Positions 38,447-40,696 of a DNA stretch of 57,026 bases are shown one piece after another. The stretch comes from an uncultured Gammaproteobacteria bacterium. Lineage in GTDB: Bacteria > Patescibacteriota > Patescibacteriia > Magasanikbacterales > GWA2-37-8. Each line of letters opens with the position of its first letter. The first letter of the stretch is position 1. The notes under the pieces are model-generated. The model did not search any database. It was not told the DNA's origin and worked only from the letters and a program-made list of their open reading frames with translations. The position numbers were made by a program, and so were the translations under genes. The stretch spans positions 1 through 57,026 of the forward strand of contig CAZHTA010000006.1 in NCBI GenBank assembly GCA_964535515.1. The letters are read 5' to 3'.

Positions 38447-38475
38447 TTGACAAGAGATCGTCTTTGTGGTATAAA
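38447..38475 (+). promoter_or_regulatory. promoter of high-GC cassette 2
   Basis: TTGACA (38447-38452), 17-nt spacer, TATAAA (38470-38475). Confidence 0.55.
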
Positions 38476-38599
38476 AACATGTTTGAAATTGGCTCGTTTC
38501 AGTCAAATTTGAACATCGTCCTTTAACATCCAGAAGATCACCGCGGTTTGGAAAACCTCGGTATCTGAGAGTTCGCAAGGGCATATCGCCCAAACCTGG

Positions 38600-38624
38600 C
38601 CGCGAGGTGTTCGCGGTATTGTTT
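38600..38624 (+). promoter_or_regulatory. attenuator-like hairpin in the cassette 2 leader
   Basis: CCGCGA-ggtgt-TCGCGG followed by TATTGTTT, 17 nt before the SD. Upstream CCGCGGTTTGG (38541-38551) can alternatively pair with CCAAACC..CCGCG (38590-38604). Confidence 0.35.
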
Positions 38625-38640
38625 CCCCAAGGAGGTTCTC

Positions 38641-40497
38641 ATGAGCGCGCTTTTTCTGGCCCTACTCGTTGCGGCAGCTGGGATCACCCCGCTTCTGATC
38701 GCCCGCGCGGTCGTTGGTGCAGCCATCACGGCGACCATCAGCTTCTTGGTACTCTGGTTCTTGCTGTACGTTGGCAACCCGTCACTGGTCTGGCCGCTCG
38801 GCGGCGCCATCGGCGCGTTCATCGTCGTCATGTGGATAGCGAGCACCCTAGTCGCCAGCATGATCGACGAAGACAACCTTGGCAAGACCATCTGGCTGCC
38901 AATTGTCGGCGTCGTCATCTACGCTATTGCTGGCCTCATCGGCAGCGAGATGTTCCGCGCGAACGACTACGCAAAGCTCATCGGCGACTTCGAACAAAAG
39001 GAGTGGACACAGGACGTCCAGCCGGCTGATCCGAAGCACATCCGACTGGTCCCGGAGGAGCTGGCGCTGTACTTGGCCGACAAGCAGTTGGCCCAGGCGC
39101 CCGGCGCCATCGGCAGCCAGTTCGTGCTGGACACGAAACGCCCGGTGCTGCAGCGAGTCAAGGGACAACTCTGGTGGGTCATTCCCTTGGACTACAAGGG
39201 GTGGCGCGTCTGGACCTCAACCGATGGTGTACCAGGCTACATCATGGTCCACGCTGATGACCCGACCATTCAACCGGTCCTGGTGCAGGACAAGATGGTC
39301 TACACCCCCGGCGCCTACTTCGGCGACAACCTGGAGAGGCACGTATGGGCAAACGGCTACATGAATATCGGCCTCACCGACTTCACGCTCGAAGTAGACG
39401 AAGACGGCAAGGCCTGGTGGGTCATAACCACCTTCAAGCCGACCATCACGTTCTGGGGCGAGAAGATCACCGGCGTGGTGATCGTTGACCCCATCACGGG
39501 CGAGACGAAACACTACATCCACAGTGCGATCCCCGAGTGGGTAGACCGCGCGATCCCCAAGGAATTCGTAGACAACTACGTAGACATGTGGGGATCACTC
39601 CAAGAGGGTTGGTGGAATACCAAGTGGTCCCACAACAACATGATGAAAGGCGAAGTGCCAGCCATCGTGTACGGTTCAGAGGGTGACGCCTTCTGGGCAG
39701 TCGGGACCACTTCGAACAACGAGAAGGACGCGTCCCTGGTAGGGCTGTTCTACATCAACTCCCGAACCGGTGACACGGTCAGATACCACGCCACCGGCGC
39801 AACCGATACCGCTGCCATCCAGGCCATCGACAACCAGGTGGCGTTCAAGAAGTGGCACGGCATCTCGCCCACGCTGTACAACCTGTATGGTATCATGACC
39901 TCGGTCGTGCCCATACTGGGTGTCAACCACACGTTCCAAGGTGTCGGCCTCATGCGAGTCGACAACCAACAGACCGTGATAGCCGACAACCTCGCTGACG
40001 CCCTGCGTCAGTATCAGAAGTTGCTGGCTGGAAGCGGCAACCAAGTCGCTCCGGAGAATGCCCACAACACGGTGTTCGTGGAAGGCATCGTCGATCGTTT
40101 CGCACAAGAAGTACGCGGTGGAAACTCGACGTACTACGTGCACCTGATCGACTTCCCCCATCTGTTCACCGGTGGCGGAGATCAGCTGTCGGCACCGAAA
40201 CTGCCGATGACCGAAATCGGCGAAAAGGTGAAAATCGGGTATATCGCTTCGGACGAGGACGTCCTCCCGATGATCTCCTTCGACAACCTCGACCTGCCGC
40301 TCACTACGAGCCCTGCCCAAAAGCAGATGCGCGAAGAGACGGAAGTGCGGCGCGAGGACGCAACCGTTCGTGCTGATGCGCACGACGCTAGGGTAGAGCT
40401 GCAGAAGCTCTCACCCAAGCAGCTCCAGGAGCTGATGCGTCTGCAGAAGCAAGCTGAGTCCGCCGCGACCGCCCCCTCGGCGCAACCCGCCAAGTAA
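38641..40497 (+). CDS. polytopic membrane protein with a large extracytoplasmic domain and a charged coiled C-terminus (high-GC cassette 2)
   Basis: 618 aa. The SD AAGGAGG lies 5 nt before the ATG. There are 4 N-terminal TM helices, then a roughly 430-aa Trp/Tyr-rich soluble domain, then a Glu/Arg/Gln-rich tail. No family recognised. Confidence 0.8.
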   Translation: MSALFLALLVAAAGITPLLIARAVVGAAITATISFLVLWFLLYVGNPSLVWPLGGAIGAFIVVMWIASTLVASMIDEDNLGKTIWLPIVGVVIYAIAGLIGSEMFRANDYAKLIGDFEQKEWTQDVQPADPKHIRLVPEELALYLADKQLAQAPGAIGSQFVLDTKRPVLQRVKGQLWWVIPLDYKGWRVWTSTDGVPGYIMVHADDPTIQPVLVQDKMVYTPGAYFGDNLERHVWANGYMNIGLTDFTLEVDEDGKAWWVITTFKPTITFWGEKITGVVIVDPITGETKHYIHSAIPEWVDRAIPKEFVDNYVDMWGSLQEGWWNTKWSHNNMMKGEVPAIVYGSEGDAFWAVGTTSNNEKDASLVGLFYINSRTGDTVRYHATGATDTAAIQAIDNQVAFKKWHGISPTLYNLYGIMTSVVPILGVNHTFQGVGLMRVDNQQTVIADNLADALRQYQKLLAGSGNQVAPENAHNTVFVEGIVDRFAQEVRGGNSTYYVHLIDFPHLFTGGGDQLSAPKLPMTEIGEKVKIGYIASDEDVLPMISFDNLDLPLTTSPAQKQMREETEVRREDATVRADAHDARVELQKLSPKQLQELMRLQKQAESAATAPSAQPAK

Positions 40498-40696
40498 TTT
40501 CCACATCCGTCGTTCGCGTATGACGACGAGGTGTTTCCCATCTACTACGCCCAGTGACGCGCAAGCGTTCTGGTCCACCTGCCCCGATCTCTCGGGGCAC
40601 TCACAAAAGACATCATTGAAGAATGGTGTTTTTTGTTTGTAAAAAATATACTACAAAAAAACACCCCGTTTACACGAGGTGTTTCTAAGTCATTTT

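Follow-up and report, generated by a model that had tools for sequence, protein, structure and literature searches.

The window analysed here, a stretch of 57,026 nucleotides that constitutes contig C6 of a genome (G000; 987 kb, 39% GC) which homologues and neighbours place among the Patescibacteria (Magasanikbacteria-like), contains a GC-rich single-gene unit, cassette 2, which encodes the 618-aa membrane protein P0001. The best explanation for this element, to which we assign a probability of about 0.45, is that cassette 2 is an autonomous transcription unit made up of promoter, leader, Shine-Dalgarno (SD) sequence, one gene and terminator, that it was gained by the lineage of this species via horizontal transfer within Patescibacteria, and that its leader is of the style of ribosomal RNA (rrn) leaders, with a 5' hairpin, a BoxA-like box and GC-rich hairpins, the last of which is terminator-like. 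A short motif similar to the rrn BoxA is the only leader feature for which the relatives show enrichment. BoxA is found in rrn leaders, where it is arranged as boxB-boxA-boxC, and also ahead of protein genes such as suhB of Escherichia coli (Baniulyte et al., 2017, PMC5725501), and the structure of the NusB-NusE-BoxA complex is available (PMC3177189).

The open reading frame (ORF) of cassette 2 (38641-40497, + strand) has a GC content of 0.60 and of 0.79 at third codon positions (GC3). GC content jumps from about 30% to about 60% near 38530 and falls back near 40600. Upstream, at 38447-38475 (+), lies a predicted sigma70-type promoter with a perfect -35 box (TTGACA), a 17-nt spacer ending in TGg (extended -10) and the -10 box TATAAA. 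Because the -10 box ends without the final T that the scan tool demands, the promoter was not listed by this tool; the near-consensus sequence nevertheless confirms the initial annotation, which had placed the promoter here. The homologues have TTGACA-N17-TATAAT-like promoters at the same relative place, and in the GC-rich relatives the promoter region forms a sharp AT-rich patch, so that an AT-rich promoter ahead of a GC-rich gene needs no special explanation. The leader of about 158 nt is AT-rich until about 38530 and has 48-59% GC from there to the ATG, which agrees with the two-part composition described earlier. It ends in the SD sequence AAGGAGGT (38629-38636, +), which is located 5 nt from the ATG and is complementary to the 16S 3' end CACCTCCTTTCT. 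Downstream of the gene, the GC-rich 3' untranslated region (UTR; 40503-40598, +) folds into three hairpins at 40503-40534, 40551-40573 and 40581-40598, followed by an AT-rich hairpin with A-run, stem and U-run (40603-40641, +; stem-loop 40603-40636), which, judged from fold and sequence, is likely an intrinsic (bidirectional) terminator closing the cassette. Two of these hairpins, the first and the third, had been claimed before and are real; those at 40551-40573 and 40603-40636 come in addition. With four hairpins, the region 40495-40650 is far more structured than its shuffles (z = -6.8).

The genome G001 of the same genus is collinear with the window at about 80% nucleotide identity and reveals the gain of the gene. 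As seen by blastn and a read-out of the junctions, the segment 37732-40652, comprising a ParE/RelE-type toxin-antitoxin pair and cassette 2, is missing at the exact syntenic site of G001:C1. Moreover, a search for the P0001 protein was negative in 36 same-family genomes and positive in only one of 24 other genomes of the order. The exact empty site together with the absence from the 36 same-family genomes shows that the gene was gained here. Besides this segment, 35708-36376, 44135-45079 and both cassettes after truB are missing from G001. Of the 16 GC-rich ORFs located on the two contigs syntenic with G001:C1 (C1 and C6), 15 have no counterpart there. Conversely, G001:C1 has 12 islands of its own, 11 of them absent from G000; a 6-kb cluster at 23161-29160 of G001:C1 (locus L123) contains six GC-rich islands, none of which aligns to G000.

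The initial annotation had called the cassette foreign. This holds for the gain of the gene, but its GC-richness is no proof of a GC-rich donor, since the copies in related AT-rich genomes are GC-elevated too. P0001, for which no donor was identified and whose best homologue shares 55% identity, groups with these copies (Shimodaira-Hasegawa-like support 97), and their GC elevation ranges from +0.03 to +0.21. In 25 AT-rich hosts the GC content of the gene exceeds that of its flanks by +0.075 on average, and in GC-rich hosts the difference is about 0, with few negative values (L105, -0.11). The same figures would also suit a gene that is not foreign at all, but an old resident of the order. Gene-specific selection would then keep it GC-rich, as a member of a class of highly expressed genes with an SD, and it would have been lost several times, G001 being one case. 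In line with such a residence, the nearest copies (G057/L026 and L049) adjoin rny (RNase Y) or hup (HU), and here rny (49701-51233) and hup (51367-51648) are adjacent, uninterrupted and located 9 kb from cassette 2. Furthermore, P0001 shares 49-52% identity with the copies from AT-rich genomes, which is not far below the 58-66% of core proteins and therefore leaves room for old residence with many losses, a point that speaks against the transfer. However, the sister species has a clean empty site and the gene was not found in the other same-family genomes, the insertion site is unlike that of the relatives, and the GC-rich ORFs as a class are species-specific when G000 and G001 are compared. 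Furthermore, the GC excess forms a continuum that is sometimes negative in GC-rich hosts, which fits two-way transfer and amelioration. Old residence is thus rather unlikely. In our reading, the gene has often been transferred between Patescibacteria and has ameliorated in part, although its high GC may also be maintained by gene-specific effects.

Small genomic islets and genes that were transferred one by one have been described in Patescibacteria (PMC12455944). Cassette 2 resembles these, as well as the "morons" of phages as an architectural analogue, since it comprises one gene of deviant composition that is equipped with a promoter and a terminator and is inserted between conserved genes, the site being flanked by gdh and the DUF4349 gene. 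As in the case of the islets, the closest relative lacks it, and exchange is likely to have taken place with other Patescibacteria. It differs from both in that no mobility gene was found with it, nor an integrase, an att site or a flanking repeat, and no relatives were found in viral contigs. In addition, the family is GC-elevated even in related AT-rich genomes, and therefore composition does not simply report the donor.

The acquired cassette is headed by a leader whose 5' part may be of the rrn type. At 38518-38528, on the coding strand (+), it contains the BoxA-like 11-mer GTCCTTTAACA, which matches the BoxA consensus GYTCTTTAANA (PMC5725501) at 10 of 11 positions. The mismatch is at position 3, and C4 and T6, the positions mutated in that study, are intact. 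The box is located 43 nt past the predicted -10 and 113 nt ahead of the ATG. At the start of the predicted transcript, an AT-rich hairpin of 30 nt (38483-38512, +; 11 bp with one bulge), present in the minimum free energy (MFE) and centroid folds, ends 5 nt before the box, which is the position of boxB in rrn leaders.

The evidence for the motif comes from the family. About 100 homologous loci were fetched from genomes and metagenomes, which gave 76 distinct leaders, and these were searched on the RNA strand for two canonical BoxA 11-mers, in comparison with the reverse complement and with shuffles. With at most one mismatch, 14 of the 76 leaders have the motif, against 0 on the reverse complement and 0.4 in shuffles; with at most two mismatches the numbers are 30, 4 and 3, respectively. 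The recurrent box, GTTCTTTAACA or GTTCGTTGAAA, is located between the TTGACA-N17-TATAAT promoter and the SD and corresponds to the rrn BoxA sequence. Both strands of the 1.08 Mb of fetched loci hold 45 matches with at most one mismatch, about 15 of which fall into the 160-nt leaders of this family. Of 28 leaders, 12 have a hairpin whose 3' end is no more than 6 nt away from the box; these hairpins are not alignable by MAFFT. Within G000, the perfect consensus occurs at most 200 nt upstream of 5/90 GC-rich ORFs but of only 1/905 native ORFs (p = 3e-5), although one of these five cases (C4:38777) is false, as it overlaps a native stop codon; with at most one mismatch, the numbers are 14/90 and 39/905. 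The genome also encodes nusB (C1:135447-135836).

Several observations weigh against an rrn-style leader. Matches with one mismatch are common in this AT-rich DNA, and therefore the copy in cassette 2 alone proves nothing and the case rests on the family; their density in the window is near chance (34 observed versus 27 +/- 5 expected). The motif is carried by only about 20-40% of the homologues and by about 15% of the GC-rich cassettes of G000. The energy of the hairpin before the box is borderline when compared with shuffles (p = 0.058). The His_Phos_1 cassette at 55692-56504, which is shared with G001, has the box GTCCTTTAACA here, but in G001 it is degraded to GATCTCTAAAA. Furthermore, in two same-family genomes the sequence ahead of 16S in the rrn leader is GAACYTTGACAACA (GAACYTTGACA), which differs from the cassette box; in G000 itself the 16S gene is cut at the contig end, so that its leader is missing. 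The leader of cassette 2 might lack a dedicated RNA function altogether, its hairpins being by-products of GC-rich DNA that travels with the gene and the 11-mer a chance match or a DNA-level element, e.g., a promoter-proximal sequence or a recombination junction at the change from AT-rich to GC-rich DNA. The box is indeed located exactly at the composition boundary, and terminator-like sites in the region do not exceed those in shuffles (3 versus 3.6). We nevertheless consider this improbable, because the enrichment is specific for strand and leader over 76 homologues from hosts of 29-70% GC, where there is no composition boundary. Moreover, direct repeats, att-like sites and an integrase are all lacking around the box, and promoter and leader are about twice as conserved as the ORF.

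This last comparison comes from a second population, as contigs from a groundwater run of another study contain a variant of the cassette of about 93% identity, promoter and leader included. The region 38446-38682 differs at 9/237 nt (3.8%), whereas two pieces of the ORF differ at 96/1345 nt and 16/111 nt (about 7-14%). Four leader differences, among those listed, keep every local hairpin, which is indicative only; through one of them, U>C at 38510, the 5' hairpin gains a G-C in place of a G.U pair. In this population the toxin part is without cover and the flank is unlike after 37725. An assembly chimera was rejected, as public runs contain contigs that extend across the left junction and across each of the two composition boundaries, although the best holder of these contigs may be the source sample itself.

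If the rrn-style leader is functional, the nascent BoxA-like RNA would load NusB-S10, together with NusA and NusG, onto RNA polymerase, and elongation by the Nus-loaded polymerase would resist hairpin-dependent pausing and termination. The polymerase could thereby pass the leader hairpin as well as the GC-rich, hairpin-prone gene, in a genome in which Rho was not found. The strong SD would then drive translation, while nearly all native genes are without an SD. The likeness to the rrn and suhB boxes consists in the 10/11 match on the RNA strand, its position between promoter and start codon and the presence of nusB in the genome; in addition, a small hairpin often precedes the box in the cassette family, as boxB precedes boxA. 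In contrast to rrn and suhB, the box heads a horizontally mobile envelope-protein gene of a bacterium of the candidate phyla radiation (CPR). Furthermore, the known target of the E. coli BoxA complex, Rho, seems to be lacking, as its RNA-binding domain was not found in G000 (96.6% complete). In gamma-proteobacteria, moreover, only a few genes per genome have such boxes, and the binding of Nus factors in cassette 2 is a prediction only. The leader also resembles that of nutL-N of phage lambda, which begins with BoxA and a hairpin and is likewise long and structured, with terminator-like structures before the gene. In lambda, however, the hairpin follows the box, whereas here it precedes it in the rrn order, and neither an N-like protein nor a phage context was found for cassette 2 (no relatives in viral contigs).

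Published precedents (PMC5725501) are BoxA elements that precede protein genes and act across distances of up to 100 nt, and nutL of lambda, which precedes a structured leader and is separated from N by a structured spacer of about 200 nt. These precedents also allow the opposite effect, namely that the box recruits Nus factors to repress translation, as in E. coli suhB and lambda N, where the RNA loop between BoxA and polymerase hides the SD; expression would then be tied to the supply of S10 and NusB. In most homologues the box is located just 24-47 nt before the ATG and thus near the SD. BoxA represses at distances of up to 100 nt (PMC5725501), and the nutL-N layout resembles the leader of cassette 2 (123 nt, structured). 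On the other hand, the transcriptional consequence in E. coli acts via Rho, which was not found here, an envelope protein offers no autoregulatory logic, and binding and effect are as hypothetical as they are for read-through. Repression is therefore a quite unlikely role of the box, and read-through remains our preferred interpretation.

The GC-rich part of the leader had been interpreted in the initial annotation as an attenuator- or riboswitch-like layout with two mutually exclusive structures, an antiterminator pairing 38541-38551 with 38590-38604 and a terminator at 38600-38624. In such a model the leader would toggle in response to a ligand, a protein or a translating ribosome. A terminator-like hairpin before the strong SD is indeed present at 38599-38624 (+; 7-8 bp, -11.8 kcal/mol). 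It is followed by UAUUGUUU and ends 5 nt before the SD; the scan tool finds it at 38599-38617 with the tail ATTGTTT, which is a consensus match only. The leader further contains a local GC-rich hairpin at 38541-38563 (+), which includes the proposed antiterminator strand CCGCGGTTTGG and appears in the MFE and co-transcriptional folds, and a small hairpin GGGC-AUAUC-GCCC at 38579-38591 (+) in the MFE fold. As a whole, the leader is structured modestly above chance (z = -2.3; 4/200 shuffles fold equally well).

The alternative pairing can be drawn on paper, but the two structures are far from balanced, as in the ensemble the terminator stem forms with a pair probability of 0.95-0.99, compared with about 0.01 in the case of the alternative. 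Its larger half, GGTTTGG:CCAAACC, is compatible with the terminator (-51.2 versus -52.8 kcal/mol), and only the 5-bp part competes with it; the fully exclusive form has -40.9 kcal/mol and is thus about 12 kcal/mol worse. The mutual exclusivity thus holds for this short part only. Rfam 15, run on the whole window at the gathering thresholds, found one tRNA and nothing on the leader. At E<=10 on 38300-38800 there were two matches, both at chance level and on the minus strand, and no T-box was found. Leader and trailer have no sequence similarity in the approximately 100 homologous loci, so that the proposed pairings are, as far as the sequence data show, not conserved, and the GC-rich segment does not recur in the 76 leaders. 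The hairpin with U-run adjoining the SD is present in this copy only and in none of the other 75. In favor of a switch are the hairpin with a U-rich tail directly before the SD, the partly competing pairing and the better conservation of the leader than of the ORF between the two populations. A 15-codon upstream ORF (uORF; 38479-38526, MFEIGSFQSNLNIVL), the ATG of which is located 3 nt past the -10 and the TAA of which is inside the BoxA-like box, could in principle serve as a sensor. However, with its ATG only 3 nt after the -10, the uORF is probably not transcribed whole, and it would be relevant only if transcription started unusually near the -10, i.e., with leaderless translation. A toggling leader is therefore very improbable, and the designation as a recognisable riboswitch or balanced attenuator is not supported by the folds and comparisons presented here.

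P0001 has neither a Pfam nor an NCBIfam match, and the initial annotation could not place it in a family. This is correct with respect to named families, but a profile search recovers 2680 representative clusters (50% identity), and recognisable PepSY-like and OB folds are present. P0001 thus belongs to a very large unnamed family of membrane-anchored proteins, a role in the envelope being suggested by the topology together with the PepSY-type domains. The family spans the CPR and, according to automatic Atlas labels (stored homologue), Bacillota, Actinomycetota and Chloroflexota. As it is very large, envelope-located and confidently modelled but without a curated name, it is a good target for functional work on monoderm envelopes. 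The AlphaFold2 model has a pLDDT (predicted local distance difference test) of 90.4 for the whole protein and 92.6 for the ectodomain, and it confirms the earlier description of four N-terminal transmembrane helices, a large external domain and a helical coiled tail. In the model, residues 1-100 form the four transmembrane helices, 105-470 a beta-rich ectodomain, 470-554 an OB fold and 558-610 a coiled coil.

Within the ectodomain, residues ~303-450 resemble tandem PepSY units (VIA-align). YpmB (2gu3; Z 7.2, root-mean-square deviation (rmsd) 6.0, 122 aligned residues) and CD1622 (4exr; Z 7.8, rmsd 9.6, 123 aligned) score 1.3-2 Z above the next rows, although both rmsd values are high for the domain pair, and the C-terminal domain of YpeB (5boi) aligns with Z 7.1 and rmsd 2.6 over 63 residues. 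The apparent likeness to these proteins lies in the tandem helix-plus-sheet units and in the extracytoplasmic, membrane-anchored location of the domain in a monoderm-type envelope. Unlike them, P0001 has no PepSY match at the sequence level (PF03413; even the distant member P0102 reaches only E = 0.14), its Z-scores are middling, and it has a four-helix anchor, an additional N-terminal beta domain (105-300), a C-terminal OB fold and a coiled coil. For residues 105-300 no clear structural match was found. The OB fold, a five-stranded closed beta barrel, matches many of those of SSB, PriB and the anticodon-binding domains of tRNA synthetases (Z 8-8.9, rmsd 2.1-3.0, 73-80 aligned); in the model this match is at the level of the fold only and implies nothing on nucleic-acid binding. 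Two other candidates were rejected: acetylcholine receptors from the PDB sequence search are chance matches of transmembrane helices, and beta-propeller/GH43 structures from Foldseek (TM-score 0.18-0.25, rmsd >10 A) are artefacts of repeated sheets.

Cassette 2 is one of many GC-rich genes in this genome. GC3 in G000 has a single peak at 0.30-0.35 and a long tail, in which 63 ORFs reach 0.55 or more, and in total there are about 63-76 GC-rich ORFs, which amount to 45-60 kb. An SD precedes 3% of the native ORFs when a 4-mer is required (1% with a 5-mer) but 29% of the GC-rich ORFs, the latter being an underestimate; despite its rare use by native genes, the anti-SD CACCTCCTTTCT is present in the 16S gene. 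We tentatively suggest, as a possibility with more against than for it, that Patescibacteria may keep a distinct expression class of GC-rich, SD-led accessory genes headed by an rRNA-type hairpin-BoxA module. The module would confer resistance to termination and would be part of the transferability of such genes, so that alien, hairpin-prone cassettes could be expressed and exchanged among AT-rich genomes without Rho and nearly without SDs; this class would include cassette 2 and its whole protein family. If the box truly loads Nus factors, mobile cassettes with protein genes would make use of processive antitermination in the style of rRNA, and this in a lineage whose transcription machinery is minimal, in which Rho was not found and SD use is almost nil. 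The expression of GC-rich genes in AT-rich genomes of the CPR could then become easier to understand. If the box is non-functional, cassette 2 would represent an ordinary single-gene transfer of a hypothetical membrane protein.

The window contains five more GC-rich single-gene cassettes, at 35708-36376, 44135-45079, ~45800-46700, ~46724-47470 and ~55640-56540. In this order they encode a 156-aa ORF, an internally repeated membrane protein of 253-263 aa, a 233-aa secreted protein, a PgpA-like protein of 197 aa and the His_Phos_1 protein. The sister genome lacks the first four of these cassettes and shares the His_Phos_1 cassette, which is preceded by GTCCTTTAACA, at 77% identity. Integron cassettes were rejected as an explanation, as neither an integrase nor an attC-like feature was found and the cassettes are scattered and have their own promoters. 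The 12-mer CACTCACAAAAG occurs at 40598-40609 and 44188-44199, at the 3' edges of cassettes 2 and 3, and these are its only two copies in the 987-kb genome. As a shared boundary sequence it was taken to be chance, because the orientations are opposite relative to the genes and no other cassette has it. A second exact 12-mer, ACGAGGTGTTTC (40526-40537 and 40674-40685), is located in the first 3' UTR hairpin of cassette 2 and in the terminator of the neighbouring DUF4349 gene, and may be insertion-site microhomology or chance. A flanking target duplication was not accepted, as the junctions have only this 12-mer and an A-rich 9-mer, and several equally long repeats inside the ORF mean that such junction repeats are no evidence of it.

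On the other side of cassette 2 and back to back with it lies the toxin-antitoxin pair, which consists of a ParE/RelE-like toxin gene (37793-38047, - strand) and a 91-aa gene at the antitoxin position (38051-38326, -) without a Pfam match. The pair has a perfect 12/12 promoter at 38389-38361 and belongs to the same segment that is missing in G001. Elsewhere in G000 the 16S and 23S genes are on separate contigs. At C13:880-1000 (locus L114), the 16S gene and a terminator are followed by the promoter TGATATAAT, then by GTCCTTTGAAA and then by an ORF, the N-terminus of which is like that of the 224-aa ORF at 51690-52364 of the window.

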